Shown piece by piece: positions 15,285 to 63,555 of a stretch of 64,000 bases of DNA. The notes below the pieces were generated by a model that saw nothing but the letters and a program-made list of their open reading frames with translations, searched no databases and was not told the DNA's origin. The DNA is from a virus: positions 32,001 through 96,000 of the IMG/VR virus record IMGVR_UViG_3300005663_000033; one strand, 5' to 3'. Within the stretch, counting starts at the first letter, position 1. Each line of letters begins with the position of its first letter. The translations under genes were made by a program, and so were the position numbers.

Positions 15285-15899
15285 AAACAATGACGGAATC
15301 TAACAATAAAAAGCGAGGACACGGGCCGATCGTCCACAAGGTTTTTAACGACAGAGGTCTTCATCTTGAACGAGTCCATCTGGATTCTTTGGGTAGCAAT
15401 CTCAACCATGGTAGACCTGTCGTAATCGGCCAAGGTGAAAACGGAGAAGATATTTCCGTAAAGATTGGTCAAAAATGCCCAAGATGTAAAATGCGTGTGC
15501 GCGGTTTTAATCATGCAAATGGCGCACACCATAAGGGAACAGTCGTAAGGCATTCCCATTAGAATTTCACATCGCGTAATTTTTGATGTTGCAACTGCGT
15601 GGTTTCTTTTGGTAAACAGAGAAGGGAAAGTGTAATGGATATGAAACTAAATCGAGAGTTTCTGTATGTTCACAGCAACAACGAGGAAAACAAGATCAGC
15701 GATTCTATGCGGTCAACCCTCTCGAAAGCCTGTGGCTGTGCGGTTACTGAGTACGCAGGAACTGTCACGATTGCTTGCCAAAGTCTCTGCGGATTGGGAC
15801 AACTACTGGCGGTAATAGCCATCGTCGATAACGAGGGACCTGACCTTCGGTTCTGTGGGTCGTTGCAGAAGGCGATTGTAAAGTTCATCGGCTAATAGG

Positions 15900-16270
15900 T
15901 TGTGTTGTGTTCCTAATGGGCGCGGTCGCAGTGGTAGGCTATGACAGGCTTCGAGCGACGGGAAGGGTTGGTACTAGTCAACTCTACGCCCAGATCGCCT
16001 TAGAACGAGACCGGAAACCTACACACAACACTTTTTGTAACCAAGAAGCTTGGTTACTGTCATGTTGGCTAAGAGTTAATGGGTGGTAGCCGTATCCAGG
16101 CCCTTCGGGGCTACTGAACTCGTGCGCACCCCATTTGGAAGTGTACTTAGTCAGCATGGCCAAATATCCCTTGGGTGGTGGTATGATCATAGAAATGAGA
16201 CAGAATGGCTAAAACGTCCATACCCCGATTTTAGTCAAGATTTCATTTCGTCCAAGGGATATCTGGCTGT
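15900..16270 (+). ncRNA. Candidate structured RNA or long structured leader
   Basis: Three long stems: 15902-15910/16023-16031; 16059-16073/16146-16160 (15 bp with G-U pairs); 16164-16174/16252-16262 with nested inner stems. Confidence 0.55.
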
Positions 16271-16289
16271 GCTGATAAAGGGAGAAAAA

Positions 16290-16626
16290 AAATGAGCCTA
16301 GCTTCGTGGAAGAAAGAGTTTTATCGAACACCAGCCAATAGGGTGTCCAAGGGATGGGCGATGAGGCATTCTATCGACAAGTGGACGGGGTTGTTGTGTC
16401 GAAACAGAAGAAAACACAAGGTCAATCTAGACGAAGGAGTTTTGTATGATAACAATAACGACAGTCAACAATTAGGTATTGATCGTCATTCGTGTGCTCT
16501 GTGCCATCATCACCAAAAGAATGGTTGCACAACATGCCCCGTAAAAAGAACTGGTAAGACATGTCATACCACATATTGGGATATGGTCAACGACAAAAAA
16601 GTGGCTCCGATGATCCGTTTGTTGAA
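16290..16626 (+). repeat. 337 bp exact direct repeat, copy 1 (copy 2 at 29614-29950)
   Basis: Line-by-line comparison found no mismatch. Confidence 0.9.
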
Positions 16627-31331: not shown

Positions 31332-31915
31332 AAGAACCTATGGATAGAAACTTCGCTATTTTCAATATCAAAGATGAAGATAGACAGAGAGCGGATGCTG
31401 GTTTTCTTAGACGATTTGGCCAGGAAGTCTTCGATAGAGAAATTTCTCCAATCCATAAAGCTGGAATTATGTCTGTTTTCCATAATCCACCAAATAAGTG
31501 GACCACATGGTATGTGGAAACAGTTGCGTTTTTAGTCAACGAGAGACGGTAGGGCACAAATATGGAACAGTGTGCTTTTCCACGGTGCAAAAATCTATCT
31601 GATTATGAGTATATCGGACGAGATATTTGCGAAATTCACTGGGGACTGCTTTGTGAGGCGGATAGCAAGACAGAAAAAGGATTATTGAAAAAGATCGGCC
31701 TAGTCAGAAATTCTAAAGGGTCTGTAGTTCCGATAAAAAGGAAAGGCGATGAAAAAGATTGATTGGAAAAGTATTTGGGAAGATTTTGATACATGGATGA
31801 TTAATCATCATCCTGGACGAATGACCCCATCTCTGGTAAAACAACAGTGTAAAATACAAAGACTTATCAACGCCCAGGTCCGAGAAATCGTACAAAAGAA
31901 AATCTAGATTTTTGT

Positions 31916-31949
31916 GGAACAAATTGCTTAGTTGGACGTATAATAAGGT
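31916..31949 (+). promoter_or_regulatory. Conserved phage promoter, copy 4
   Basis: GGAACA-aattgctt-AGTTGGACG-TATAAT-aaggt, upstream of the AAA ATPase operon. Confidence 0.78.
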
Positions 31950-31990
31950 AGGAGATTCTAGCGACAGTGCGTAGGGGGTGAGAATACAAC

Positions 31991-32203
31991 ATGAACAAAC
32001 AACAAATTGCAGCCAAGTTGAGAGCAATTTTGTGTCAAGCCGATAGTATGTCTGGACTACTCAGCCGTAAAAGATCATCTAAACACGCAGATGATATTGA
32101 AGTTTTGCTGGAGCACATATCTCTTCTTGTAGCTGATCTGCGGTTTGACAACGCAGCTACGCGCAATGAACTCTGGCAAGTACGAGATATTCTTGAAGAA
32201 TAG
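31991..32203 (+). CDS. Divergent member of the FDxxATR coiled-coil family (paralog 3)
   Basis: SLLVADLRFDNAATRNEL...ILEE aligns with 27446. Confidence 0.6.
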   Translation: MNKQQIAAKLRAILCQADSMSGLLSRKRSSKHADDIEVLLEHISLLVADLRFDNAATRNELWQVRDILEE

Positions 32204-32245
32204 ACCGTTCATTTCTTTAGTCACTTAGTTTAAGGGGACAATAAT

Positions 32246-33805
32246 ATGAAGGACTTCGCCACGGATTTTGCCGATTATTGTTGTTCAGGTCACGCCCTAT
32301 TACATGTAGAAACCTTCGAAAAAGATCGGGTAATAAGCGAGATTGCGAAGGTGGCTGACGCTATGAATCGTAAGGTCTATATTTGGTCTATCGCTCGTGG
32401 ATGGATAGACAAGAATGGTGGTTCTGTATGTGGTGTCAAACCCTCTGCTCAGATCGAAGAACACTTGCAGGCAATCGTTGAATTCCCGAATAGCGTTATC
32501 TGCATACTGCGCGACTTTGGCATATATATGCAACACGAAACCTATTCCTATGATGATGTTGTTGTTGGATGGTTGGATGAGCTTCGCAAAATCGTAGGAT
32601 CAGTCAACCAAAATATCGTTTTCGTTGGTCCAGATTTTAAGGTCCCCAAACCATTGCTGCATGATATTACGAAGATTGATTTTGATCTACCAGATAATGA
32701 TCAAATCAGTGAACGAATCGATTTTGTTTGTAGTGATGTGGTCAAAGCCAATGGGGAAAAGTTCGAACCAAATAAAGATATAATTCCACATATCATTGAT
32801 TCTTGTCGTGGTATGACTTCACAACAGACGGTCGATCGTGTTGCTCTAGCCCTTCGAAAACACAAGGACTTGAATGAGGATGCCGTGCGCACCATCGTCA
32901 GAGAAAAGGCCAGCATTATTCGTGCATCTGGACTCCTCACATACATAGAACCGCCAAAAGGAGGACTAGCTAATGTCGGTGGATATGACGCACTAAAACA
33001 ACACGTCCTCCTAGATCAACCATGTTTTACTCAAGAGGCGAGGAAGTTTGGAATAGAATTCCCCAGAGGACTTATGCTTGTTGGAATACCGGGCTGTGGA
33101 AAAACGCTGCTGTCTCTAGCCATCGCATCGGAACTTGGTTTGCCGCTCATCTCCATGGACGTTGGCAATCTAATGGATAAATATGTTGGTGAGTCCGAGG
33201 GCAATATGAGGGAAGCAATTAAGATGTTAGAAAGTATCGCCCCGTGTGTTTTACAGTTGGACGAAATAGAGAAAGGTTTTGGTGGCACGTCTGACATGGA
33301 TGGTGGTTCGTCTCGTCGAGTATTCGGCACCTTCATCAAGTGGCTAAACGACAGAGAATCCCCCGTATACGTTGTTGCCACAGCCAACCAAGTCCAATCT
33401 CTCCCACCTGAGTTTTGTCGTAAGGGTCGTTTCGATGAGATATACGGACTCGATCTACCAAACTTCGAAGAACGTAAAGAAATCTTCTGTATTCATCTCT
33501 CGAAGAGGGAAAGAAAACCAAGTGATTTTGAAGTTGAAAAGTTATCTGAAATCAGCCAAGGGTATACAGGAAGTGACGTTGAACAAACTATCAAACTTGG
33601 TCTAAAGATGGCTTTCTCAGAAAACAGCGAGCTTACAACAACCCATCTCATGAAAGCTATTTCTAATATAGTTCCACTTTCCAAAACAGAAGAGAGCCGA
33701 ATTAAGGAAATCAGACAGTGGTGTAAGATGCATGCGCGGGCTGCAAATCCAAGTAAGAAAAATAGTCCACGTGGGGACAACGCCAGGACAGTCTCACTAA
33801 ACTAA
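32246..33805 (+). CDS. AAA+ ATPase (Ycf46-like: degenerate N-terminal AAA plus active C-terminal AAA)
   Basis: Walker A GIPGCGKT, pore loop KYVGESE, Walker B LQLDEIEK, ATAN, RKGRFDE. Confidence 0.92.
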   Translation: MKDFATDFADYCCSGHALLHVETFEKDRVISEIAKVADAMNRKVYIWSIARGWIDKNGGSVCGVKPSAQIEEHLQAIVEFPNSVICILRDFGIYMQHETYSYDDVVVGWLDELRKIVGSVNQNIVFVGPDFKVPKPLLHDITKIDFDLPDNDQISERIDFVCSDVVKANGEKFEPNKDIIPHIIDSCRGMTSQQTVDRVALALRKHKDLNEDAVRTIVREKASIIRASGLLTYIEPPKGGLANVGGYDALKQHVLLDQPCFTQEARKFGIEFPRGLMLVGIPGCGKTLLSLAIASELGLPLISMDVGNLMDKYVGESEGNMREAIKMLESIAPCVLQLDEIEKGFGGTSDMDGGSSRRVFGTFIKWLNDRESPVYVVATANQVQSLPPEFCRKGRFDEIYGLDLPNFEERKEIFCIHLSKRERKPSDFEVEKLSEISQGYTGSDVEQTIKLGLKMAFSENSELTTTHLMKAISNIVPLSKTEESRIKEIRQWCKMHARAANPSKKNSPRGDNARTVSLN

Positions 33806-33814
33806 GGAGATATT

Positions 33815-34825
33815 ATGAGTACCGCAACGGTGCAGAAATCAAAGTCTAACCAGGACACCATTAATCTTTTCGAAGTCGGGTGCCTGGTCAATCTAAGAAT
33901 TAGCATGTGGTCTGGGAGAAAAATGTTGACCCGTGCTGATCTTGTTCATGTTGGTTACGACCCCGACAAACTTCCTGAAGATATAGTAAATCTCGGAAGA
34001 AAGCTTATGGTTCCCAAGTCGGAACTGCAAACTCTAAATCAAATCGAACAGCGCGCCCGTAAGGCGTTGGAACGTTGGTCCGTACCATTTGGTATTGCCA
34101 ATGCTCACTTTGTCCCATCGACAATGATTATGACGGTCGAACAACAGGTCAAAGAATTGAAAAAAGAGTTTTTCGTTAGAGTTGACAGCTTCATTAGGCG
34201 TTTCGACGATCTTATCAAGGCAGTAAAGGACGCTCATCCAGAATTCTGGGATAAGTGTTTAAAGGGGCACTATCCGTCCAATCCAAAATCGTTGAGACAA
34301 TTGTTCCAGTTTGACTGGTATACCTTCAAGATATCTGGAGTATCCGCGATCGAAGAGGTCAGTGCGGAGGAAGTGGTTGCTAAACAAAAGGTGCAAAACG
34401 AACGAGAAGTAGAATTGCGTCAACAAATGCAAACCGCTGTAGGTGAGTTTGTAGGAGAGTATGTAACCACCATGAGGGACGAAACTGTTAGATTTTGTAA
34501 CCTAATGACGGCTCGTATCAATGGTACGCCCTTTGAGGATGAAGAAGATGTCAAAGGTCTGACTCCAAAATCTATCTCATGCTTCCGCAATTATATCGAT
34601 CGCTTCCGGTCAATGAATGTCTTCGGGGATGGAAGTATTGAAAAGATGTTATCAGAATTCCGAGACACGTTCTTGGATTCTGGTGTTACTCCACAGGATT
34701 TTGAGTCGGCAACAGTTGCTAGTAGCATAACAAAGGCGCTCGAAGCCATTCGGAACAAGGCTGCCGCTGAAGGTGAAAGTGGTAGTCAGTTTATTGGGGA
34801 ACTAAAAAGGAGGATTGTGATATGA
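33815..34825 (+). CDS. DUF3150-like protein
   Basis: LVNLRISMWSGRK.L...LG.KL.VP...AR..L...S.PF; lies directly after the AAA ATPase. Confidence 0.6.
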   Translation: MSTATVQKSKSNQDTINLFEVGCLVNLRISMWSGRKMLTRADLVHVGYDPDKLPEDIVNLGRKLMVPKSELQTLNQIEQRARKALERWSVPFGIANAHFVPSTMIMTVEQQVKELKKEFFVRVDSFIRRFDDLIKAVKDAHPEFWDKCLKGHYPSNPKSLRQLFQFDWYTFKISGVSAIEEVSAEEVVAKQKVQNEREVELRQQMQTAVGEFVGEYVTTMRDETVRFCNLMTARINGTPFEDEEDVKGLTPKSISCFRNYIDRFRSMNVFGDGSIEKMLSEFRDTFLDSGVTPQDFESATVASSITKALEAIRNKAAAEGESGSQFIGELKRRIVI

Positions 34826-35541
34826 CAAAAGCGATTGACATTTTGCGTCGTTGTAAAGAACTCTTCGAGAAGGGACTTGTCGGAATTCCTATAGGCCAGA
34901 GTATTGGTTCCGACTGGGTTGATGATGTAGAAATAGATATCAACAACTTCTTAACGGGATACAATGAAATCACCCTAGGTAGTTGTTATCATACTGGCCT
35001 TGCATACTCTCTAGCTTACGATGCACATGGAATGGTGGAACTGTCTGGTAAAACATTCACCAATCTAGACACTGGTGTCGATGGTGGAGCAATGGCTGCT
35101 CTAAAAGAATACCAACGAAATTTAAATCCTGATCGAGATGTCCCTTTCTTCATTGTCGCACTTAAGCCAGTCAAAATCTATAGGCCTCCAGACTTGGATG
35201 TTTGTGACGATTGTTTTAAATGGAAGAAAGATTGCGCCTGTGACGAAAATGATACCACCAACTCCGGGTGTAATTGCCTTGATGGTAATTGTGATGACGA
35301 TTGTTGCGAAAACTGTGGTGAGCTATACGAACATTGTCAGGGTCTTTGCCTCGATAATTACGACCCATGCGACGAATGCGGTAGCTCGGATTGCGATTGT
35401 TGGGTTTATCAAGAGTCTTATTGCCAAAATTGTGGCCTGGTTGATTATAAGTGTTTTTGCCCCGACGGATGTCGGTGCAACAATGAGGTGGTCGCTCCAC
35501 CTCTGAATGCGTTTGATAGGGCAAGGTTCCTGAAGGCATAA
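34822..35541 (+). CDS. Hypothetical protein with Cys/Asp-rich C-terminal repeats
   Basis: Multiple CxxC...CxC units. Confidence 0.7.
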   Translation: MTKAIDILRRCKELFEKGLVGIPIGQSIGSDWVDDVEIDINNFLTGYNEITLGSCYHTGLAYSLAYDAHGMVELSGKTFTNLDTGVDGGAMAALKEYQRNLNPDRDVPFFIVALKPVKIYRPPDLDVCDDCFKWKKDCACDENDTTNSGCNCLDGNCDDDCCENCGELYEHCQGLCLDNYDPCDECGSSDCDCWVYQESYCQNCGLVDYKCFCPDGCRCNNEVVAPPLNAFDRARFLKA

Positions 35542-35552
35542 GGGAAACTATA

Positions 35553-35966
35553 ATGAGCAGATATTGTACAGTACGAACTGAATTCATGGATGGCAGGGCT
35601 CTAATAGAAGCTCTCGTGGAGACTGGCCATTGGACAGCAGAACAAATCGAAATTCACCATGAACCACAACATCTTCTTGGATATAAAGGCGACAGGCGCA
35701 AAGAAACAGCCAATATTATTATTCGTAGTAAACATGTAGGTAGATTATCAAACGATATCGGTTTCGCCAAAGGGGAAGACGGTAATTATGTAGCAATAAT
35801 TTCCGAATACGACTCTGGTAGGTATGGAAAAAAGTGGATCGGCCAATTGACGGGCAATTACGCTTATCACAGAGTCCGTAGAGAGCAAGAATCTCGCGGT
35901 CGCAATGTGTCTAGGGAACGTGGACGGGATGGTCGCCAAAGAGTGACTATCACAGGTTATAGGTAG
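35553..35966 (+). CDS. DUF1257-like protein
   Basis: MS.Y.TV.T...D...L..AL; GY.GD.R...A.IIIR; SNDIGF.....G.Y..IISEYD. Confidence 0.75.
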   Translation: MSRYCTVRTEFMDGRALIEALVETGHWTAEQIEIHHEPQHLLGYKGDRRKETANIIIRSKHVGRLSNDIGFAKGEDGNYVAIISEYDSGRYGKKWIGQLTGNYAYHRVRREQESRGRNVSRERGRDGRQRVTITGYR

Positions 35967-35971
35967 AAACT

Positions 35972-36313
35972 ATGGCATTGCAATTCTTAAGCGAAAACAC
36001 CGGAAAAATGAAAGATGCTGTGTTTTGTTTTACTGGCAAATCCCCAAAGACTCGTCCCGAGATGCAAGCGATTGCAATCGGTGCTGGCGCAACAGTCACC
36101 AAATCCGTCACCAACAGCACAACCATCTTGGTAATTGCAGACGCAAATAGTACATCATCCAAAGTAATAAAAGCTCACTGGAGGGGAATTGATTTAATAA
36201 GCCCAGAACAGTTCTTCGAAATATGTGGCAAAACCAAAACGTCAAAGAAATTTGTAATAACCAAACCATCTGAAAAGAAAAGACATTCGTCTGTGAGACG
36301 GATACAACTTTAA
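35972..36313 (+). CDS. Stand-alone BRCT-domain protein
   Basis: FCFTG...TR...GA.V..SVT..T..LV.....SSK..KA...GI..ISPEQF, as in the DNA ligase BRCT domain. Confidence 0.85.
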   Translation: MALQFLSENTGKMKDAVFCFTGKSPKTRPEMQAIAIGAGATVTKSVTNSTTILVIADANSTSSKVIKAHWRGIDLISPEQFFEICGKTKTSKKFVITKPSEKKRHSSVRRIQL

Positions 36314-36324
36314 GGAAAAAAACC

Positions 36325-36837
36325 ATGAAACTTATAGACATTCCACAAATGAGTAGACCTGGATATGCTACTGACCATTTTCTATATATGTTACCAAAAA
36401 CTATCAAACAATATCAAGAAGAACGACTTTGTCCTCTTAATCTGGAACCTGATTTCCAAAGGGTTCACGTTTGGACTCCCGAACAGCAAACTCGATATAT
36501 GGAATTCATTTTACGAGGAGGAAACTCATCGAAGGATTTCTACTTCAATTGTCCTGGTTGGCAGGGTTCCTATGATGGACCATTTGAACTCGTTGACGGC
36601 AAACAACGACTTGCTGCCTGTTTGGGTTTTATGAACGGAACAGTTCCCATTTTTGACGGATTCTATATTGGAGACTTTACTGACAAACCATTCAATGTTC
36701 TCCTGCGTTTCCATATCAACAATCTAAAAACTCGTAAAGAAGTTCTCCAATGGTATCTGGATATTAATTCTGGTGGAGTTGTTCACACCGCCGATGAACT
36801 AGACAAAGTAAGAGAATTACTAGAAAAGGAAATTTAA
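36325..36837 (+). CDS. DUF262 (ParB/Srx-fold) domain protein
   Basis: PDFQRVHVW, VDGKQRL and IN.GG motifs. Confidence 0.8.
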   Translation: MKLIDIPQMSRPGYATDHFLYMLPKTIKQYQEERLCPLNLEPDFQRVHVWTPEQQTRYMEFILRGGNSSKDFYFNCPGWQGSYDGPFELVDGKQRLAACLGFMNGTVPIFDGFYIGDFTDKPFNVLLRFHINNLKTRKEVLQWYLDINSGGVVHTADELDKVRELLEKEI

Positions 36838-37374
36838 TCTATGCAAAAACTACAACTAGAGATTAGTCACATAACTATCCCGAAGGGGATCGGAGCAGAT
36901 CAAATATCCTTTTGTGTTCCAAATGATCGGGTATTAGATGATGTACTAGGAGACACAGAAGCCCGTGAATGTTTCCCAGAACTATATTTCGACCTTAAAA
37001 TTACCAAAGGTAAAGGCGAAAAACTATTGTCAGCCCTTGGATTAGTAGCGGATAGGATCATATCCAGGTCAACCGGATATAGTTTTGGACGATCAAGAAA
37101 AAATCATGATAAACAAAGTAAACCATGATTTGGCCTATGCCCTAGCTGAGTTCGCCACCCATGTCATAGATAGATATGACTCCGATGACCCATCAGCAAG
37201 AACTCAAATATTAGTCAAAGGCGTTTTCGCTGGGGCTAGTTGTGGAAGTTTAGTGGAATACGCTAAGGAAAAACTACTGTTGGCCCACACATATATTTCA
37301 CCAAAAGAGATTGAGGATATAAAAAGGAGAAATATGGATGGCAAAAATTGCAATCTTCCTCCGAGGAGAACCAA

Positions 37375-38385
37375 ATGACACAAGATCGTAAACTTTGTTT
37401 CAACGATATCTTGTTAGTCCCACAATATTCAACGCTGGATTCCAGAACAACCCCTGATATAACAACCCATTTGGGTCATCTAGAACTGAGAGCCCCGATT
37501 ATCTCTGCTCCTATGGATTCAGTCACTGGAAAATATATGCTTGTCATCATGGATAAGTTGGGCGGTTTGGGGATATTGACTCGTCATATCAATTTGCCAG
37601 ACGACGAAGAGTTGGCGATGCAAGTTCGAGAGATTCAATGGGCTCGCGATCAAGGTGCTATTAATGTAGGATGTGCTGTTGGAATCAAAGGAGACATTGA
37701 CAGGAAGGCTCAATCTCTATTGAACGCCGGGTGCAATGTGATCTGTCTAGACGTAGCCCATGGCGACCACAAAAAGATGTACGAGGCAATAAAGATTATA
37801 GTTCTTCTTCAAGACAACTACCACTTTATCGTCATGGCAGGCAACGTATGCACCGAAGAGGCGGTAATAAAATTCGCAAAGCACGGTGTAGATGCTATTA
37901 AAGTAGGTATAGGACCTGGCGCAGCTTGTACGACCAGGATTATAACCGGATTTGGTTATCCTCAAATGTCTGCGATCATTGAATGTAGCAATAGTATCAA
38001 AAAATATCCACAAACAACAATTATTGCAGACGGAGGAATCAGGAATTCGGGAGATATGGTAAAAAGCCTTTGGGGTGGAGCAAGTGCGTGTATGATCGGA
38101 TATATGCTGGCAGGGACCAATGCGACCCCAAGAATCGATGGCAAGAAAGTCTACAGAGGGATGAGTAGTCGCGCTGTTTCTGGTAGATCAGACATAGCCC
38201 CAGAGGGAGTCGAAATAGAGATGGGAGATAAAGGGGAAACAGAAGAAGTCGTAAAAGGATGTATCAAGGGAATTCGCTCAGGTTTAGCGATGGGTGGAGC
38301 GAAAAATCTCACCGAACTGCGTGAGAATATTAAACACGTAATTGTCAGTCCACTATCTATGGAAGAAACAATGCCTAAATCGTAG
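37375..38385 (+). CDS. IMP dehydrogenase / GMP reductase family protein (no CBS domains)
   Basis: F.DILLVP, SAPMDSVT, DVAHG, AGNV, KVGIGPGAACTTR, IADGGI, YRGMSS. Confidence 0.92.
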   Translation: MTQDRKLCFNDILLVPQYSTLDSRTTPDITTHLGHLELRAPIISAPMDSVTGKYMLVIMDKLGGLGILTRHINLPDDEELAMQVREIQWARDQGAINVGCAVGIKGDIDRKAQSLLNAGCNVICLDVAHGDHKKMYEAIKIIVLLQDNYHFIVMAGNVCTEEAVIKFAKHGVDAIKVGIGPGAACTTRIITGFGYPQMSAIIECSNSIKKYPQTTIIADGGIRNSGDMVKSLWGGASACMIGYMLAGTNATPRIDGKKVYRGMSSRAVSGRSDIAPEGVEIEMGDKGETEEVVKGCIKGIRSGLAMGGAKNLTELRENIKHVIVSPLSMEETMPKS

Positions 38386-38778
38386 AAAGGTGATATGATG
38401 GGTTTGTTAAAAAACATAGTCAGGGGTATTTTGTCAATAAATCTATTCCCACCACCTAAACCACCTTACAAAGCTCCTGAAATAAAGTCTGACGAAGAAG
38501 CTATTCGTGAAAATTGGGAAATCGTTGGAAAAGACTTACAAAGGGCTATGGACAAAATTGATAAAATAGAAAGAGAATAAAATGAAAAAGAAACTCAAAG
38601 ACATCGCAGAATTCATTTTGCTGTTCTGGTGTTGTGGCGGTGGCGGCGTTATTGGCCTAGTATGTTTCGCTTTTGCATGGAAACTAGGGGTGGTCATCTT
38701 AGGCTTATGGGGGTGCTCGGTTATCATGGCGATCCTTATCTTAATCAACAAACAAACATCAAAAAAAAGAGATAAGAA

Positions 38779-39036
38779 ATGAAAATTGTTCTAGACATCG
38801 ATCCTGCTGGAGATGTCCATTGTCTATATACTGACGAAATCGACTTATTCGCCATAGGAAGAGTTGTTGGGGTGCGTAAGGCGTCAAACGTAGAATTCAA
38901 CGAAAAAAAACAAGTCTGGGAAGTCTTATCTCTCGAAGGGAAAGTCCTACACGAAAGTTGCAGCCGCGTGGCTGCTATAGATTGGGAAATAAAGGCGTTT
39001 TCGCCAGGGGGAATGTGTTATGATCCTATGGATTGA
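38779..39036 (+). CDS. Conserved hypothetical protein of a family I recall from Planctomycete Ubl/AAA gene clusters
   Basis: I.P.G.V.CLY.DEIDL..IG....R.AS.VE....W...SR..A..WE pattern; family assignment from memory. Confidence 0.6.
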   Translation: MKIVLDIDPAGDVHCLYTDEIDLFAIGRVVGVRKASNVEFNEKKQVWEVLSLEGKVLHESCSRVAAIDWEIKAFSPGGMCYDPMD

Positions 39037-39657
39037 TGAGTTTGGAGAGGCACACGTCGCAAATGACTTAGATGACGGTATGATTGACGCTATTAATAAT
39101 AGTGAGGCGGTGTTCTATCGCTTTGATACTGATACCAAAAAATACCAGTATCACAATGGTACTAATTGGATAACCATTAAAGAAGGGTAGGGGGATGATA
39201 TGCGAAAAGTGTATTATAAGGTAGTGTTGAATGTGTTTATTCTTGAGGATGATGAAGCAAATGTCGCAGACAGATTGAGAGAATCAACATTTGCTTTAGA
39301 CTATAACGCCCTCGATGAAGTTGCTGATGTCCACGATATCTCCGTAGAAAGTGTAGAAGTAACCGACTCTAGATAAAAGGAGATTTAAGTTATGCTACCC
39401 GAAGACGCTAAAAAAAACAAATGCGATCGATGCGGAGTGATAGTTAGCCTTTATCGTCATGCAAATGGTTGGCGATGCCCATCGTGCATCTGGAACGAAC
39501 GAGAAAACTTGATTAAATGGTCTAAACCACTGCTTAATCTAACCCATTACACAGCGGCTAAATATAAAGACAATCCGGTAGTAATTGTGTCTCGCAGAAA
39601 CCTTGACGCTCTGGCAGAAGTCGTCAAAGAGGTCACCTCTATTTAACGAATGAGAAA

Positions 39658-39858
39658 ATGACCTTATCGTCTTTAAAAATGAACGAAACAGCAACCATTA
39701 TTGGTTGTTCAAATAAGAGACTGTGCGACTTAGGTCTAATATGTGGGGTAAAAATACGTATAGTCAAGCAAGGTAATACTTGTATTATACGATTCAATAA
39801 CACGAGTCTATGTATGGGTTATAAGTATCAAAAAATAATAGAAATAGAGAGGAAATAA
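39658..39858 (+). CDS. FeoA-family SH3-like protein
   Basis: MTLSSLK.NE.A.I...RL.DLGL..G..I.IV. Confidence 0.75.
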   Translation: MTLSSLKMNETATIIGCSNKRLCDLGLICGVKIRIVKQGNTCIIRFNNTSLCMGYKYQKIIEIERK

Positions 39859-41431
39859 TGTGGCTATGGAAGTGTTTAGAGGATGGTATCGTAAGTCTCT
39901 GTCTAGAAAAGGCACCGTGTGGCACCGTGTCCATAAGGTCGATTCTGTTTTCGCTAGCAAGCAGATGGCATACACAGTATGCGATAGACGTATAGCAACG
40001 ACCAAGTGTGACTTCGATATGAAACCAGATCACAGATATATGCAGTGTGAAAAGTCACCTGGAGTAATAGTAGAAACGGGTCGTGGTTTTGTCCCCATAG
40101 GCGCAACAGCAATCAACACCAAAGCTGATGCCATTTACGAATTGAAACGTCTATTGAAACCACGAACCTATTATCTTAGGATTTGGGGTATCTATGGTGT
40201 TCAAATCACAGCCAAATGGGAATCAGATATTAGTATAGATATTTACACAGAAACCGAAATCATTACCAAACGGCACAAGAAAAAGCTTATGGCTTTGCTG
40301 CAAGTGCAAGCAGACTTGGGTCGTTTCAAGTCTGCGATTGATTGTCTTTGTGACGCAACAACCGTCCTGGCCAAAAAGGCTAAGGAGAAGAAGAAGTTAA
40401 AGGGTCGTCTAACCGAAGCAGAAGATCAGGCGTACTTCGAAGAACTCTTATATGAAGCGGAGAAATAAAAATGTCGTGGTCATTAAAAAATATGATTGAT
40501 AAAATGAGTGATGACAGAAGAGAGGCTCAGCTACAATGGAACAGAGAATTTCCACCAGATATAGAGGTGGATGTGGTTGAAGATGCTGGTATAACAATTA
40601 CGTATGGAATATGGAAAGTTCCTAATGGCGACATCTTCTTTATACCTAAATCAAAAAGTGGTTATCAACCAGAGCGCAGAATTAATATTGACAAAAAAAT
40701 TGTCGAGGCAATAAGGGGTAAAACATGACTCAGGTAATGATAGATGTTAATGATAAAAGAATAGACGAAGCGGTAAGAAAAGAACTCAAGCGACTAGAAG
40801 GACAGGTTAAGCGTTTGAAGTTGAGCAATGCAAAACTCAAGTCTCAGATAAGAGACCAACAGGAACTTGAGACAAGAGCGCGTAAGATTGTCAACGCAGC
40901 GGAAGCTATAGTCCGTGAATACAATGATGAGGAATAAGATGATAGAAAGAGACAAGATTTACATCATAAACACCAATGATCTCACTCAGGTCAAATGTTT
41001 TTCTGTTGGTGAAACAGTCTCCTACAAGATAGCAATGTACCTTCTTGGAAAAAGGATTCCTTTGTTTCTCCTTTGTCGCCCAGGTTACAGTTCTATCTTT
41101 TTGGAATCTCATCTCCATTGTGAGATGGTGGAAGAAATCAAAAAATGGTTGACAGCGACAATCAAGGTTCGTTATAGGGGTGTAGGAAAAATGAAATCTA
41201 TACCATTCCCTTTTAGGGATAAGGAGAAAGAATAATGAAAACAATATATGTCGTCCTTAGAGGGGAAAACCGTGAGTTCAGAAGATTATTCTCTTCTCGC
41301 GGTGGGGCGGAAGGCTACATATCCACAGGACAAAAGGCTGGGATAGATGGCTCTGAATCAGAATTTGTTGAAGTCCACCAAGTAAGAGAAGAAGCAAGTT
41401 GCGACTCTTGTATCTCTAATGAGGAGTAATC

Positions 41432-41638
41432 ATGCGAGAACAAAAGAAAGTCATCATAGATATTGACCCAGACGGAAATTGTTCGATAGGGGGTGAGGGG
41501 TTCGTTGGTCCTGAATGTGGTCATTTCCTTAGTGAAATTGAAGAATCACTTGGAACACAAATATCTCAAAAAGATAAACCGGAATATAGACAAAGACACA
41601 CAACCAGTAATAGAAACCGTCAGTGTGAAGGTAGGTAA
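41432..41638 (+). CDS. DUF2997-like protein
   Basis: IDIDPDG....GEGFVGPEC......IEESLG......KPEY. Confidence 0.75.
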   Translation: MREQKKVIIDIDPDGNCSIGGEGFVGPECGHFLSEIEESLGTQISQKDKPEYRQRHTTSNRNRQCEGR

Positions 41639-41930: not shown

Positions 41931-42926
41931 AAAGGAGAGTAATATGAGTTATCCATTGATAAAAATAGTATCTGATGTCAAAAGCATCAAATGGTTTTCC
42001 CATATCCAAAAGAAAATATCAAAGGTTGGGCTGTTTTTAAATGTTTTCGAAGATAAGTTTGCTGTTGGCAAAAAGAAATACGCTTCTAAAATCGAGGACG
42101 TTATTGATGAGGCCGTACGCACATCTACAGAGGGTTCAATCTCATTGTTTAACACTCTAGAAGAAGTAGAAGCGTTCGTCCAAGGCTTTTGTCTTTCTAC
42201 GGGTAAGAAGCTTCCCTTCTGACCGAGCGCCTTGAGCGGTGGCAATAAAAGTCCACCACCAGTTTATTGTATACGTGTTATCTGGAAAGGATATGGAATT
42301 AAGATTGTAATAAACAAATGTTTTGGTGGATTCGGCTTCAGCAAAGAAGGAATCGAATCCATGGGTTTAGACTGGGATGATCATGGGAAATGTGATGACT
42401 TGTCTCGAAGCGACCCCAGGCTTGTCAAATGTGTCGAAGAACTCGGCGACAAGGCGAATGGGATATTCGCTAGTTTGAAGGTAGTGGAAATTCCGAACGA
42501 TATAAAATACACGATAGAAGATTACGACGGAATAGAACATATTGTAGAGGAACATCAAACTTGGGAGTAATGCCTTTTGAACGGAGTCGGTGAATGAGTA
42601 AAAAGAAAACAGAGAGACAAAAAGTAAGTAAGATGATCGTAGGAGGATTGAGGGAGACAATACGCGCCCATGGTCCTATAACGAAACGATTAATAGGAAG
42701 TGCGGCAAAACGAATTATTGGCACGCTACTTGCCAAAAGGAAAATAGATGATCAAGAAGAAGAAACAGGATGATTTTTGGGAGCCATGTCTACGAGCTAA
42801 TGGACGAATGGAATGGATATGTCCGTGTGGTGTAGGTCATGGAAATCATGTTCATGGATGTTGTGGAAAAGAATGTTGTAATCGGGATGATTTTCCAGGC
42901 AAGACAGAAAATAAATAGAGGTGCTG

Positions 42927-43439
42927 ATGCAATTAATTCGTTACCCATCACAAATATTGTTGAAAATATGTAAGTCGGTGCTTGACTCAGGGAAGGGTCA
43001 GAGACGTAAAGATAGACTTATACTTGCCAACAAGATGTGGAAAATAATGAATGATAATCATGGCATTGGATTAGCTGCACCTCAAGTTGGACTTGATATC
43101 CGTATGTTCGTCTGGAATTACTATGGCAGTCAGGTGCATAATCAGGCTATTTGGAATCCAGTCTTGATTCATATATGTGGTTTTATAGAATCAACAGAAG
43201 GATGTCTTTCGTTGCCTGGAGTAAACGTAACCCTACAAAGAGCAACATCATCTGTTTTGTCTGGCACTGGAATAAACGGGAAACCAATAGGACTCATCGG
43301 AAATTCAATCACAACACGAATTTGGCAGCACGAAATTAATCACCTAGACGGCAAGCTGATCATAGATAATATGAGTTTGAGTGACAAAAATTCCAACAAA
43401 GGTGCTCTTCGTGAATTATTGAAGAATCATGGACAATAA
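42927..43439 (+). CDS. def: Peptide deformylase
   Basis: GIGLAAPQVG, EGCLS and QHEINHLDG motifs. Confidence 0.95.
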   Translation: MQLIRYPSQILLKICKSVLDSGKGQRRKDRLILANKMWKIMNDNHGIGLAAPQVGLDIRMFVWNYYGSQVHNQAIWNPVLIHICGFIESTEGCLSLPGVNVTLQRATSSVLSGTGINGKPIGLIGNSITTRIWQHEINHLDGKLIIDNMSLSDKNSNKGALRELLKNHGQ

Positions 43440-44846: not shown

Positions 44847-45497
44847 ATGCCGAAATTGATTGATCTTACTGGGAAAAGATTTGGTAGGCTTGTTGTTATC
44901 TGTCGCGACAAGAAAAATCGATTTGGAACACTCTGTTGGTTGTGTTTGTGTGACTGTGGTAAAGAAAAAATTATTCTTTGTGGCAGTCTTAAAAGTGGCA
45001 AGACGAAAAGTTGTGGATGTTTACGAAAAGAAATTATTTCAAAAATAATGACAAAACATGGCCATACGAAGAATAGGAAACAATCTCAAGTCTACAGGTC
45101 GTGGTATCACATAATACAGCGATGTACTAATTCTAACACAAAAGACTACCGTTGGTATGGTAGTCGAGGAATAACTGTTTGCGAACGATGGTTAAAATTC
45201 GAAAATTTTCTTGAGGATATGGGAGAGGCACCAATTGGATATCAAATTGATAGATTGGATAATAATAAAGGGTATTATTTAGAAAATTGTCGGTGGGTTA
45301 CCCCAAAACAAAATGGTCGCAATAAACGAAACAATCATCTGATTACACATAATGGCGAAATACAATGTATATCTGCTTGGGCAGAAGAAACCGGAATAAG
45401 TAAAAATACTATATTGTGGAGAATAACTCACGGTTGGTCACCGGAGAAAACTTTAACTACACCAGGTAAAATGGAGAAAACGAGTGACTGTAACTGA
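44847..45497 (+). CDS. Free-standing HNH homing endonuclease
   Basis: DLTGKRFGRLVV, CLCDCG, SCGC, YGSRGITVCERW..FENFLEDMG, IDRLDNNKGY..ENCRW. Confidence 0.88.
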   Translation: MPKLIDLTGKRFGRLVVICRDKKNRFGTLCWLCLCDCGKEKIILCGSLKSGKTKSCGCLRKEIISKIMTKHGHTKNRKQSQVYRSWYHIIQRCTNSNTKDYRWYGSRGITVCERWLKFENFLEDMGEAPIGYQIDRLDNNKGYYLENCRWVTPKQNGRNKRNNHLITHNGEIQCISAWAEETGISKNTILWRITHGWSPEKTLTTPGKMEKTSDCN

Positions 45498-46935
45498 AAT
45501 AAAGCCAAAAGTTATCACAATTTTTCCAGAGCGCGGGATTATCGTGGATAAGAATTTAGTAAATTTGAACGAACAATTCCGAAAATTGCCATCTTTTGTG
45601 GCTGATTTTTTGGTCGCAGAAATGGTAGATAGTGATAACCCCGCTCCAGGTTTGGAACGCATTAATCAACTTCTAAGTGATCATTATATGGAATCCGACC
45701 AAAGGGAGCTTGTGAAGAGTAAAATTCGTGAAAAAGGAGAGTATACTCTTCTAGGGAATATCCGTTGTAGATATGATGATGGCAAGGATGAATATTGGGC
45801 TGATGTTGTGGCACTCGGGAATCAGTACATCCGCATAGACCCATACCTTATCGCCGAACACGGAGAAACTCTATTAACCACCGGCGCTTGGGGGATATTT
45901 CAAATCACATATGATGATTCATACGTCATGAGAAATAAACTATATCCATTTTTAATAACCAAGTTCCGTCCTATACAGATTACGAGAATTGATGTTGATA
46001 CCTGGATCAAACGTAGATCCCAGTTCACAAATGAAGAATGGCTAGATTTAATGATTACGAGTGTCGGCTTTGATCCCACCCATCTTTCTGAAGAAGAAAA
46101 ATGGTTGTATATGGTAAGGATGGTTCCATTTATTGAACCAAATGTCAATATGGTAGAACTCGGCCCCACCATGACCGGAAAAACATTTGCGTGCCAATCT
46201 CTCAGTGCTCATGGATTTGTGATTTCTGGCTCCCAAACAACAGTGGCGTCTTTATTTTATGATAAACTGCGAAGACAATTGGGGTTAATAGGCTATAGAG
46301 ACGTCGTTGCGTTTGACGAATTCACCAATAGTCGCGGTGGGAACAAATGGTCTGGACACAGCGGTTTAGTAGACATCCTCAAAGATTTCATGAATTCTGG
46401 AAGATTCGGTCGTGGTACTGCTGAATTTGCTTCGGATTGTTCTTTGATGTTCATGGGAAATATTGATTGCGATAGAGACAAGAGGGCTGTTTCGGTAAGA
46501 TATCGGAGTCTTTTCTCACCATTTCCACAAATAGTTAGTCAAGATAGGGCATTTATTGATCGTATCCATGGATTCATTCCAGGTTGGCGAATAGGGCCGA
46601 TTAGAGAATCCAACCTTGCCAAAGGTTTAGGGTTTATGGCTGACTATATGTCTGAAATAATGCACAGAATGAGAGATCGTAATTATGCTAATGTCATATT
46701 ACAAAATGTGGATTTCGGGAAAATGGGACAAAGAGATCAGAGATCGCTTGTTCGTATAGGGTCTGGTTTACTGAAATTGGTGTTCCCCCACAGAATAGTC
46801 GAAACTGTAGAACCTAATGAACTGAAAACCGTTTTGGATATGGCGGTCGATCTGCGACAGAGAGTGTTGGACCAGCTAGCAATAATTTCTCCTGGTGAAT
46901 TCAAGGGTGTTAAATTGGAGTATAAAGTTAAATGA
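45484..46935 (+). CDS. BrxL-like AAA+ ATPase lacking the C-terminal Lon protease domain
   Basis: R..FT.EEWLDL...S.G, ELGPTMTGKT, DVVAFDE, LKDFM.SG.F.RG, GNID, AFIDRIHGFIPGW. Confidence 0.85.
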   Translation: MTVTEIKPKVITIFPERGIIVDKNLVNLNEQFRKLPSFVADFLVAEMVDSDNPAPGLERINQLLSDHYMESDQRELVKSKIREKGEYTLLGNIRCRYDDGKDEYWADVVALGNQYIRIDPYLIAEHGETLLTTGAWGIFQITYDDSYVMRNKLYPFLITKFRPIQITRIDVDTWIKRRSQFTNEEWLDLMITSVGFDPTHLSEEEKWLYMVRMVPFIEPNVNMVELGPTMTGKTFACQSLSAHGFVISGSQTTVASLFYDKLRRQLGLIGYRDVVAFDEFTNSRGGNKWSGHSGLVDILKDFMNSGRFGRGTAEFASDCSLMFMGNIDCDRDKRAVSVRYRSLFSPFPQIVSQDRAFIDRIHGFIPGWRIGPIRESNLAKGLGFMADYMSEIMHRMRDRNYANVILQNVDFGKMGQRDQRSLVRIGSGLLKLVFPHRIVETVEPNELKTVLDMAVDLRQRVLDQLAIISPGEFKGVKLEYKVK

Positions 46936-48614: not shown

Positions 48615-48917
48615 TATGACGACATTTTGCGCCAACAATCTAGGAAAGATTAAACAGCAGCCCTTTCAATGTTCTGTGTGTGAGCAGACATTTACTGTTG
48701 AAGCCAACCTTGATTTTGGTGCTGAAGAATGTCCAAAGTGTGAAAAGAATCTTCGCACCCTTGTTTGTAGATTTATCAGGCTGGTTATAACTGGAAATCC
48801 TGATGGAATGTCTTTGAATGATATTTTGTGTATTCTTGGGAGGGATGAAGTTAAACGGAGAATTATGTCATATAAGATTTACAATTAGAAAATTACAAAG
48901 TAAAATCAAAGATTTGT

Positions 48918-51893: not shown

Positions 51894-52739
51894 GTGGGGT
51901 TGGATATGACTCAGTCGATAATAGGAATATGCACTATATTGCTTTGTTTACTATCTGCGGGTACTGACTGTATAATCAGTGAAGAAAAGTCTAATGTCGT
52001 ATCACCAGTAATTGATAAACCAGTAATTGATAAAATTGAACTTAAACAGAAAGAGATGCGAGACACAATAGTGCTCGTAAAGACACGTCGTGGAAGTGGT
52101 TCTGGAACCATTATAGATCGCATAGATATCGACATTGAAAACATATTCGAATATCGTATACTAACTAATGCACATGTAGTTCATTCAAGATTCTTTAGAT
52201 ATTTACGAGGTGTTAATTCTTTAACAGGAAAAATAAAAACCGAAGTTGTTGACACTGGTTGTGAAATTATTACATTTGATCATAAAAACCAAAAATGGAA
52301 CAGCTATGTTGTAGATATTGTCTCAGAAGATGTAGCACTTGACTTGGCAATTTTATCTTTTGTGTCAAATAAGGAATTAAACGTAGCAAAAATAGCTAAC
52401 GATGACATGTTAAAACAAATTCGTGTTTTTGATGAAGTTTTTGCTATTGGTTGTCAGCTTGGACAGGCTCCAAGTCCAACAACTGGTATTGTATCACGAA
52501 TTCTGACGGGAACTCACAATAAACAGAAATGGATAGTTTATGGAAGTACTACACAAATTGTTCCAGGTTCTAGCGGTGGTGGACTATTTAAGGAATATGA
52601 TGATCATTATTATTTGATAGGTATTCCATATCTCGCTGCCATAACTAATAGTGGTCAATTTGTATCGCATTTATCATCAGCCATTTCTGTTGTAACAGCA
52701 AAAAACTTTATTGATGAAAACTCGGTGTGCAATGACTAA
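51894..52739 (+). CDS. Trypsin-like serine protease with N-terminal signal/anchor
   Basis: GSG, LTNAHV (His), DLAIL (Asp), PGSSGGGLF (Ser). Confidence 0.88.
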   Translation: MGLDMTQSIIGICTILLCLLSAGTDCIISEEKSNVVSPVIDKPVIDKIELKQKEMRDTIVLVKTRRGSGSGTIIDRIDIDIENIFEYRILTNAHVVHSRFFRYLRGVNSLTGKIKTEVVDTGCEIITFDHKNQKWNSYVVDIVSEDVALDLAILSFVSNKELNVAKIANDDMLKQIRVFDEVFAIGCQLGQAPSPTTGIVSRILTGTHNKQKWIVYGSTTQIVPGSSGGGLFKEYDDHYYLIGIPYLAAITNSGQFVSHLSSAISVVTAKNFIDENSVCND

Positions 52740-62499: not shown

Positions 62500-63555
62500 A
62501 TGGCTAAGAAAAAATCAAAGATTGAAAATGAATCACTGGATGTATTTCTTACGCGGATACACGGTGAAGGTATTATTGCCACAGCAGATAAAGCTTTACC
62601 TCCTAGAAAGAGAGATGTTCTTAATACCCCACTATCTTTAGACATTGCTTTGAGTGGCGGTATTCCAGATGGTACGATTTGTTTAATCACAGGAAAACCA
62701 AAGTCGGGGAAAACCACGCTGTGTCTAGAATTACTGAGAAATGCACAGATTCTTAATCGTCCGACATTCTATATTAATATTGAAAAAAGATGTACTCCAT
62801 CCTTATTATCAACGATTCAAGGGCTTGATCCGTCAAAACTTCAAGTCATCCCACACCAAATAGATAAACCACTAACGGCTGAGGATTATCTCAACATTAT
62901 AGAACGTATTGCTAAGACACAGAAAAAAGCCGTTGTTGTAATAGATAGTATTGCCGCACTATCTACCATGACAGAGCAAGAAGAACAAATTGGATCAAAC
63001 AAAGATATGGCTGGACCTGCAAAGTTGTTGTCAGCGTTTTTTAGAAGAGCACAACAAGTCGTAGATTCAAATGATGTTATTCTCATTTTCATTTCACAAA
63101 TGATGACAAGCAGAGAACCTCGTGGTCCAAAATGGATGGAAAAGGGTGGAATAGCTATTCAATATGCATGTTCTGTTTGGCTTAAAGTTACCTGGATACA
63201 GCAATGGGAAAGAAATGCAGAAACCAATGCTCCAGATGGTCACGATATGCACATAACAGTACAGTCATCCGCCCTAGGACGGCCACTTTTGCCTTGTATT
63301 CTACCTCTTCGATATGGTGTTGGAATTGATGTTGTAAAAGATATTGTAATGACAGCAGAGAACCTTGGATTGATCGAAAAAGCTGGCGCCTGGTATTCAA
63401 TTCCCATGTTTGCTGGCGATGGTGATCCTCCTAAGTTTCAAGGACTTGCAAGATTATCCAACTTTCTAAAGGATAATCCAGATAAGTTAAAACGACTGGA
63501 GACTGAAGTAAGAGATATTGTATTACCAAAGGAGACAGATAATGCTAAGGACTAG
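62500..63555 (+). CDS. recA: RecA/UvsX-like recombinase
   Basis: SLDIALSGGIP.G, Walker A GKPKSGKTT, VVIDSIAAL, FISQ, GG.A..Y, I.KAGAWY, KFQG. Confidence 0.9.
   Translation: MAKKKSKIENESLDVFLTRIHGEGIIATADKALPPRKRDVLNTPLSLDIALSGGIPDGTICLITGKPKSGKTTLCLELLRNAQILNRPTFYINIEKRCTPSLLSTIQGLDPSKLQVIPHQIDKPLTAEDYLNIIERIAKTQKKAVVVIDSIAALSTMTEQEEQIGSNKDMAGPAKLLSAFFRRAQQVVDSNDVILIFISQMMTSREPRGPKWMEKGGIAIQYACSVWLKVTWIQQWERNAETNAPDGHDMHITVQSSALGRPLLPCILPLRYGVGIDVVKDIVMTAENLGLIEKAGAWYSIPMFAGDGDPPKFQGLARLSNFLKDNPDKLKRLETEVRDIVLPKETDNAKD

Follow-up and report, generated by a model that had tools for sequence, protein, structure and literature searches.

The window analysed here is a 64,000-nucleotide stretch (bases 32001–96000) of the 113 kb virus record IMGVR_UViG_3300005663_000033 in IMG/VR, and it raises the question of whether a Ycf46-like AAA ATPase and four scattered partner genes operate together with an upstream operon encoding a ubiquitin-like protein (Ubl), an E2-like protein, a JAB protein and an E1/ThiF protein. 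An initial annotation, made from the sequence alone, had proposed that the two sets form a single system of roughly nine components, possibly one in which Ubl tagging is coupled to an unfoldase or segregase analogous to Cdc48/p97. As judged from gene neighbourhoods, the AAA set has been joined repeatedly but optionally, on mobile elements, to Ubl-E2(zinc-finger array)-JAB-E1 operons of a single type. The source genome of the window is a phage and not a planctomycete chromosome; the record is about 68% complete according to CheckV, and its close relatives are phages of 160–180 kb. The region represented by the window is the replication and nucleotide-metabolism arm of the genome, with RNR, ThyX, a RecA-like protein and a PD-(D/E)XK nuclease among others.

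A conserved five-gene module

The four families named in the initial annotation were all recovered, on the plus strand, with Pfam calls above the curated gathering cut-offs. These comprise the AAA ATPase (32246–33805; PF00004, 2.6e-29, 102.8 bits against a cut-off of 21.2; phrog_8638, 7e-121), a mostly helical DUF3150 protein (33815–34825; PF11348, 2.8e-23, 83 bits against 24.9, covering profile positions 5–162 of 257), a Ycf35-like DUF1257 protein (35553–35966; PF06868, 3.5e-11, 43.7 bits against 22.2), and a small DUF2997 protein (41432–41638; PF11211, 5.5e-9, 36.2 bits against 24.1). The fifth gene (38779–39036), annotated as a conserved small protein, encodes an 85-amino-acid product, here termed S85, that belongs to no Pfam family, matches phrog_38408 (1e-7) and is present in all nine of the closest relatives at 55–68% identity.

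Across these nine relatives (AAA 63–76% identical), the order AAA-DUF3150-(w34822)-DUF1257-S85-DUF2997 is conserved and the intervening genes vary, where w34822 denotes a 239-amino-acid lineage-specific protein of variable length (34822–35541, plus strand) with homologs in close relatives only and no Pfam, PHROG or PADLOC match. The scatter described in the initial annotation is real, in that all five genes are intact and BRCT, ParB/GmrSD_N-like and IMPDH-like genes lie between them, and it can be attributed to inserted accessory genes, because the relative L010 holds the same five genes nearly contiguously in about 3.9 kb. Conservation of gene order thus shows AAA, DUF3150, DUF1257, S85 and DUF2997 to be one conserved module, evidently pulled apart in this phage by accessory-gene insertion.

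The Ubl operon occupies 21778–25325 on the plus strand, 7–10 kb upstream of the AAA set, and was recognised through Pfam, PADLOC and an E2 motif (Ubl at 21778, E2-like protein with a CxxC array at 22039, JAB at 23365 and E1/ThiF at 24636). The E1 is a short 229-amino-acid adenylation domain (ThiF, 6.9e-23, 81.5 bits). The JAB protein falls below the Pfam cut-off (Prok-JAB, 5.2e-5, 23.5 bits against 25) and has PADLOC JAB and E1-E2 matches. The E2 family carries an invariant HPH-x6-C-x-G motif plus a long CxxC array; the E2-like protein had no Pfam or PDB UBC match, and the Ubl had no Pfam match. Relatives encode the E2-like protein as a single open reading frame (ORF) of 400–465 amino acids. 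In the window the gene is split into overlapping ORFs (22039–23037 and 22832–23410), with homology changing frame near 23037, inside the CxxC array, which may reflect an assembly error, a real frameshift or defect, or a programmed shift.

Linkage in Planctomycetota

The initial annotation had stated that the two sets cluster in mobile regions of Planctomycetota. A first cellular sample of 80 loci anchored on the AAA gene had shown no Ubl linkage, but a second sample anchored on DUF3150 reversed that picture. The DUF3150 profile was searched against 401 Planctomycetota genomes and matched 25, often with 2–5 copies, and 20 loci were fetched for gene-order reading. The order DUF1257-DUF2997-AAA-DUF3150-S85 occurs in 15 of the 20, with S85 directly after DUF3150. 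In 8 of the 20 the AAA set runs co-directionally into Ubl-E2-JAB-E1; in six of the 20 the nine families form a single block whose genes are separated by small gaps or overlap by 4 bp, and in two further loci the Ubl set lies against an AAA set that was incompletely detected. A Gimesia genome is one of those carrying the nine-gene operon. None of the small unnamed genes found within these blocks is matched in the window.

Among 37 E1 copies, 19 (from 12 genomes) have DUF3150 nearby on the same strand at a median distance of 3.75 kb. At the genome level the association is strong (both, 12; E1 only, 6; DUF3150 only, 13; neither, 370; odds ratio 57, p = 2.6e-12). With eight linked loci and this odds ratio, that statement proves correct, and the lack of significant co-occurrence that the initial annotation had named as the outcome telling against its proposal is not what was found, given the strength of the association. 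The proposal of one system of about nine components is partly supported, in that the linkage is repeated and six complete nine-family blocks exist, but not as an obligate unit, each set being common alone.

Linkage in phages

Viral loci were sampled from both sides, with an AAA survey of 84 loci out of roughly 370 viral AAA relatives and an E1-side sampling that drew on roughly 320 E1 relatives. The E1-side sampling yielded three linked groups: the window lineage, a group around L120, and L103. In L120 and its relatives, which are distant phages of 150–180 kb (E1 31–34% identical), E2-JAB-E1 lies about 3.3 kb upstream of AAA-DUF2997-DUF1257. In L103 all nine families are found in one co-directional block of 7.3 kb. 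Compared as whole genomes, these three elements prove otherwise unrelated: in each of the genomes G000, G074 and G072 (GC content 0.41, 0.49 and 0.55) the AAA and Ubl sets are adjacent in differing arrangements, and these genomes have few proteins in common (G000-G074, 6; G000-G072, 4; G074-G072, 2, the AAA and E1 only). In both the E1 tree and the AAA tree the linked members fall into three clades, set apart from one another by unlinked members.

The AAA matches in L108, L129, L156 and L162 were rejected as instances of linkage and left out of the linkage counts, as they were weak (E 1e-7 to 4e-4) and belonged to other AAA families. In L108 (456–4962) a different AAA protein of 396 amino acids, with similarity to the core only (E about 1e-7), lies between Ubl and E2 of a Ubl-E2-JAB-E1 operon, and here an AAA may have become paired with the operon type independently, for a second time. 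In L120, a 288-amino-acid RecA/KaiC-like protein is encoded just 3′ of the AAA gene (15554–16420), the slot taken by DUF3150 in the window; it resembles the RecA-like gene at 62500–63555 of the window (31% identity over 125 amino acids).

The core triad and its additions

AAA, DUF1257 and DUF2997 occur in the same neighbourhood in the window, and the same three genes recur well beyond the linked elements. In about 45 of the 84 viral loci, DUF1257 and/or DUF2997 is encoded no more than a few kb from the AAA gene, and the unrelated Rhizobium phage L338C and Aeromonas phage HJ05 carry a compact AAA-x-DUF1257-DUF2997-S85 cassette. At least 32 of the 80 AAA-anchored cellular loci, from many phyla, contain the AAA-DUF1257(-DUF2997) triad; AAA-DUF1257 adjacency is present in the cyanobacterial loci of this sample, and the adjacency of DUF2997 and ycf35 has been recorded for cyanobacteria (PMC4284462). 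These distributions show the AAA-DUF1257-DUF2997 core (Ycf46/Ycf35 in cyanobacteria) to be an old triad of both cells and phages.

DUF3150 and S85 are missing from the plain cellular triads of the AAA-anchored sample. The S85 profile finds 27 phage loci, including the fifth gene of the L338C and HJ05 cassettes, and DUF3150 adjoins the AAA gene in the window lineage, in seven distant phage records and in the Planctomycetota islands. Both are additions to the module seen on mobile elements. L103, a provirus with the gene order of the Planctomycetota blocks, is probably an element of the Planctomycetota kind. The proteins of about 210 amino acids in the L338C/HJ05, L103 and L120 cassettes were considered as one family and rejected, with no detectable relatedness. 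In about 33 viral AAA loci, comprising the clade of Mycobacterium phage Corndog (L003) and the L045/L051 clade, no DUF1257 or DUF2997 was detectable within 10 kb; in these clades the two proteins have either diverged past detection or been replaced.

Properties of the ATPase and its partners

The window ATPase has a single AAA domain (residues 276–403 of 519) with the features of a classical AAA protein, namely Walker A, Walker B, sensor-1, both arginine fingers and an aromatic pore loop (KYVGESE), and is predicted to be an unfoldase. The motif positions G283/G285/K286, V314-G315 (KYVG), D339-E340, N381 and R392/R395 are invariant in seven divergent members of the family, with relatives only 27–28% identical. 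Of the solved structures in the PDB, the D2 ring of p97/VCP/Cdc48 and archaeal VAT come closest to it (E 8e-55); the matches align the D2 region only, to residues 232–491. The two tandem AAA rings of Cdc48/p97/VAT are absent from the window protein. A structure search of the ESM Atlas with the N-domain (residues 1–245) returned solely N-domains of the same AAA family.

For DUF1257 and DUF2997 a physical partnership is suggested by two observations. A single ORF in L034 (9161–9742) is a natural fusion of DUF1257 (residues 1–133) and DUF2997 (residues 125–192), and the predicted complex of the two proteins scored 0.82 against 0.40 for the best control. In the calibration 58 of 80 solved complexes, but only 2 of 110 mismatched pairs, attained that mark; it applies only roughly because author-built alignments were used. 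Runs of the prediction share at least 79% of contacts, with a partner pLDDT (predicted local distance difference test) of at least 65. The modelled contact includes a pairing between the first DUF2997 strand and the last DUF1257 strand. G15 is invariant in the DUF2997 alignment and G26 and C29 are near-invariant, with C29 placed by the model outside the predicted DUF1257 interface. That DUF1257 and DUF2997 form a heterodimer is therefore partly shown, at the level of structure prediction.

The remaining structural and profile searches pointed to no function. The DUF1257 model (pLDDT 90.8) had no Foldseek match and a best VIA Z of 6.3 (root-mean-square deviation 2.7 Å over 78 residues) to generic KA1/TBP-like alpha+beta domains, and the DUF3150 model (pLDDT 77) had no Foldseek match and a best VIA Z of 9.2 (3.0 Å over 104 residues) to a generic four-helix bundle, short of the threshold used for helical folds. 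When profiles of DUF1257, DUF2997 and S85 were run against PDB sequences, nothing scored E <0.01, and an ESM Atlas search with S85 found unnamed clusters or its own family only. None of the four AAA partner proteins is matched by any PADLOC model.

Transcription units and neighbouring genes

The motif TTGT-N3-ACAA-N16-TATAAT recurs exactly at three positions of the window (28332, 31912 and 48914), where 0.03 copies would be expected by chance; all three lie at gene boundaries on the plus strand, and the motif looks like a promoter class specific to this phage. The copy at 31912–31944 heads the AAA set and falls where the stretch singled out by the initial annotation begins (31916). A general sigma-70 promoter scan performed no better than on shuffled sequence (34 sites against 44.7 expected). 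No T-tailed terminator was found on the plus strand between 31.9 and 42.9 kb, and with the next motif copy only at 48914, the five scattered genes probably still lie within a single transcription unit. A strong intrinsic terminator (29133–29158, plus strand; 11-bp stem with nine G-C pairs, then a T-run) separates the Ubl region from the AAA set.

Immediately 5′ of the AAA gene, a lineage-specific protein of 70 amino acids (31991–32203, plus strand) is encoded in all nine close relatives at 52–68% identity and has no counterpart in the Planctomycetota blocks. The inserted accessory genes fall into two plus-strand stretches. The one at 35972–38782 includes, by Pfam, a BRCT gene (start 35972), a ParB/GmrSD_N-like gene (36325) and a GMP-reductase/IMPDH-like gene (37348) as well as small ORFs, and its genes are kept, missing or located elsewhere in relatives; the one at 39020–41429 holds variable small genes, most without a counterpart in relatives. 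A radical-SAM gene just 3′ of E1 (26233–27159) is conserved in L005, L008, L009 and L011. Further protein-processing genes of the same arm encode a peptide deformylase (42921–43439), a BrxL-like Lon-type ATPase (BrxL_N and BrxL_ATPase; 45484–46935) and a trypsin-like peptidase (51894–52739).

Interpretation and alternatives

The reading favoured here is that the module is a Cdc48-type unfoldase with its cofactors, acting on Ubl-tagged proteins where the Ubl operon is present, and a probability of roughly 0.55 is assigned to it. The two sets probably cooperate, because the five genes adjoin the same tagging operon in unrelated phages and in Planctomycetota islands. Tagging followed by unfolding is the best supported, though inferred, mechanism, and a plausible one, because the core of the ATPase has its nearest match in the p97/Cdc48 D2 ring. 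The ATPase would act as a hexameric protein unfoldase of the Cdc48/p97-D2 type, with the small module proteins as its cofactors or adaptors. In genomes that also have the Ubl operon, this motor would unfold or extract the tagged proteins. During phage infection it would most likely act on proteins of the host or of the phage. A more elaborate version can be offered tentatively, as possible rather than probable: a mobile nine-gene pathway in which the E2-zinc-finger array attaches the Ubl and a single-ring, Cdc48-D2-like motor, guided by DUF1257-DUF2997, DUF3150 and S85, unfolds or extracts the products, carried by the elements as a means of reshaping the host proteome or countering defences.

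Several results weigh against cooperation of the two sets, and most of them would also be expected of two independent mobile modules that do not interact functionally and only share cargo space in the accessory regions of phages and integrative elements, an explanation that is rather unlikely. Each set is frequent alone in complete genomes. Of 17 distant phage genomes that carry the AAA and have a completeness of at least 90%, a single one has ThiF, the genomes of L338C, HJ05 and Corndog are without it, and ten complete Ubl-operon phages of 40–66 kb have no AAA of this family. Within the window lineage, L022, L023 and L025 have lost the Ubl operon and retained the AAA module; no Ubl set lies near the AAA gene in the 80 AAA-anchored cellular loci, and 8 of the 20 Planctomycetota loci hold the five genes alone. 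In the window phage itself the two sets are 7 kb apart in separate transcription units, served by separate promoter motifs, with the terminator at 29133 and the motif copies at 28332 and 31912 between them, and the E2-like gene is frame-shifted. The well-supported branches of the E1 tree are also compatible with a single origin of the linkage. Independence of the modules is nonetheless hard to reconcile with Planctomycetota blocks of fixed order and spacing (median 3.75 kb), with 4-bp overlaps and 19 copies in 12 genomes, with the genome-level odds ratio, or with three phages that have almost no other genes in common and keep the sets adjacent in differing arrangements.

Two further points count against the favoured reading: the folds of DUF1257, DUF3150 and S85 yielded no functional clue, and neither a protease nor a Ubl-binding domain nor any other direct biochemical link came to light. 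The coupling could be real and the motor could instead serve the conjugation machinery, by remodelling or recycling the Ubl, the E2 zinc-finger array or complexes of these, as TRIP13 resets HORMA proteins in CBASS, or by loading a cofactor through the DUF2997 cysteine. This is unlikely. The lack of a protease in the block, the near-invariant cysteine outside the predicted interface and a weak similarity of the AAA to the PADLOC TRIP13 model (2e-4) fit such a role, but the ATPase is far closer to the p97/Cdc48 D2 ring (8e-55) than to TRIP13, and the module is present without any Ubl set in most genomes. A defence or counter-defence ATPase system of the IetA kind, unrelated to protein tagging, is very improbable: the AAA does match PADLOC IetA models (2e-26), but only across the generic core (residues 264–493), there is no IetS-like protease adjoining the AAA gene, the neighbouring genes have no PADLOC match, and the triad also exists as a set of chromosomal and plastid genes.

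If the tag-and-unfold pathway is true, it would be the parallel, in bacteria and viruses, of the ubiquitin-Cdc48 axis, to which it might be related by evolution. A role of bacterial ubiquitin-like conjugation systems in phage defence has been shown only recently, and the fate of the tagged proteins is largely open; the mobile coupling of a Ubl operon with a Cdc48-like unfoldase points to a downstream effector arm. The coupling would also give a first clue to the function of Ycf46/Ycf35/DUF2997, a triad of cyanobacteria and plastids that has long been uncharacterised, and the nine-gene operon of Planctomycetota such as Gimesia is a compact construct for direct tests.

Comparison with known systems

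With described bacterial Ubl operons (PMC1779556; the Bil/Bub systems, PMC10557695 and PMC11601596) the window operon appears to share a Ubl, an E1-like protein, an E2-like protein (His…Cys) and a JAB protein in one mobile operon, but differs from those of PMC1779556 and Bil/Bub in the long CxxC array of its E2 and in the short 229-amino-acid adenylation domain that makes up its E1. None of the five operon types 6a–6e of Iyer, Burroughs and Aravind (2006) includes AAA, DUF1257 or DUF2997 (PMC1779556), and PMC10557695 mentions no AAA or ATPase. No paper was found that ties these DUFs or the Ycf46-like AAA to bacterial Ubl operons, though a mention in Burroughs et al. 2011 is possible. The chromosomal triads of cyanobacteria and plastids, Ycf46 (AAA), Ycf35 (DUF1257) and DUF2997, are of the same three families as the core of the module but are without DUF3150, S85 and the Ubl operon.

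In the Pup-Mpa/ARC-proteasome system of Actinobacteria a classical AAA unfoldase recognises a small-protein tag. The tag, Pup, does not belong to the beta-grasp Ubls and is ligated by PafA and not by E1 and E2, and Mpa feeds the proteasome. The proposed arrangement is thus alike in combining a bacterial small-protein tag with a classical AAA unfoldase and unlike in that its tag pathway is of the Ubl-E1/E2 kind and no protease was found in the window module.

Cdc48, p97 and VAT work with ubiquitin- or SAMP-directed cofactors such as Ufd1-Npl4, to which DUF1257, DUF2997, DUF3150 and S85 are unrelated as far as is visible. The window ATPase differs from these proteins in having a single AAA domain, a family-specific N-domain and an optional Ubl linkage, and resembles them in its classical AAA unfoldase core, with aromatic pore loop and arginine fingers, and in that ATPases of its type are genetically tied to a Ubl-E1-E2-JAB pathway.

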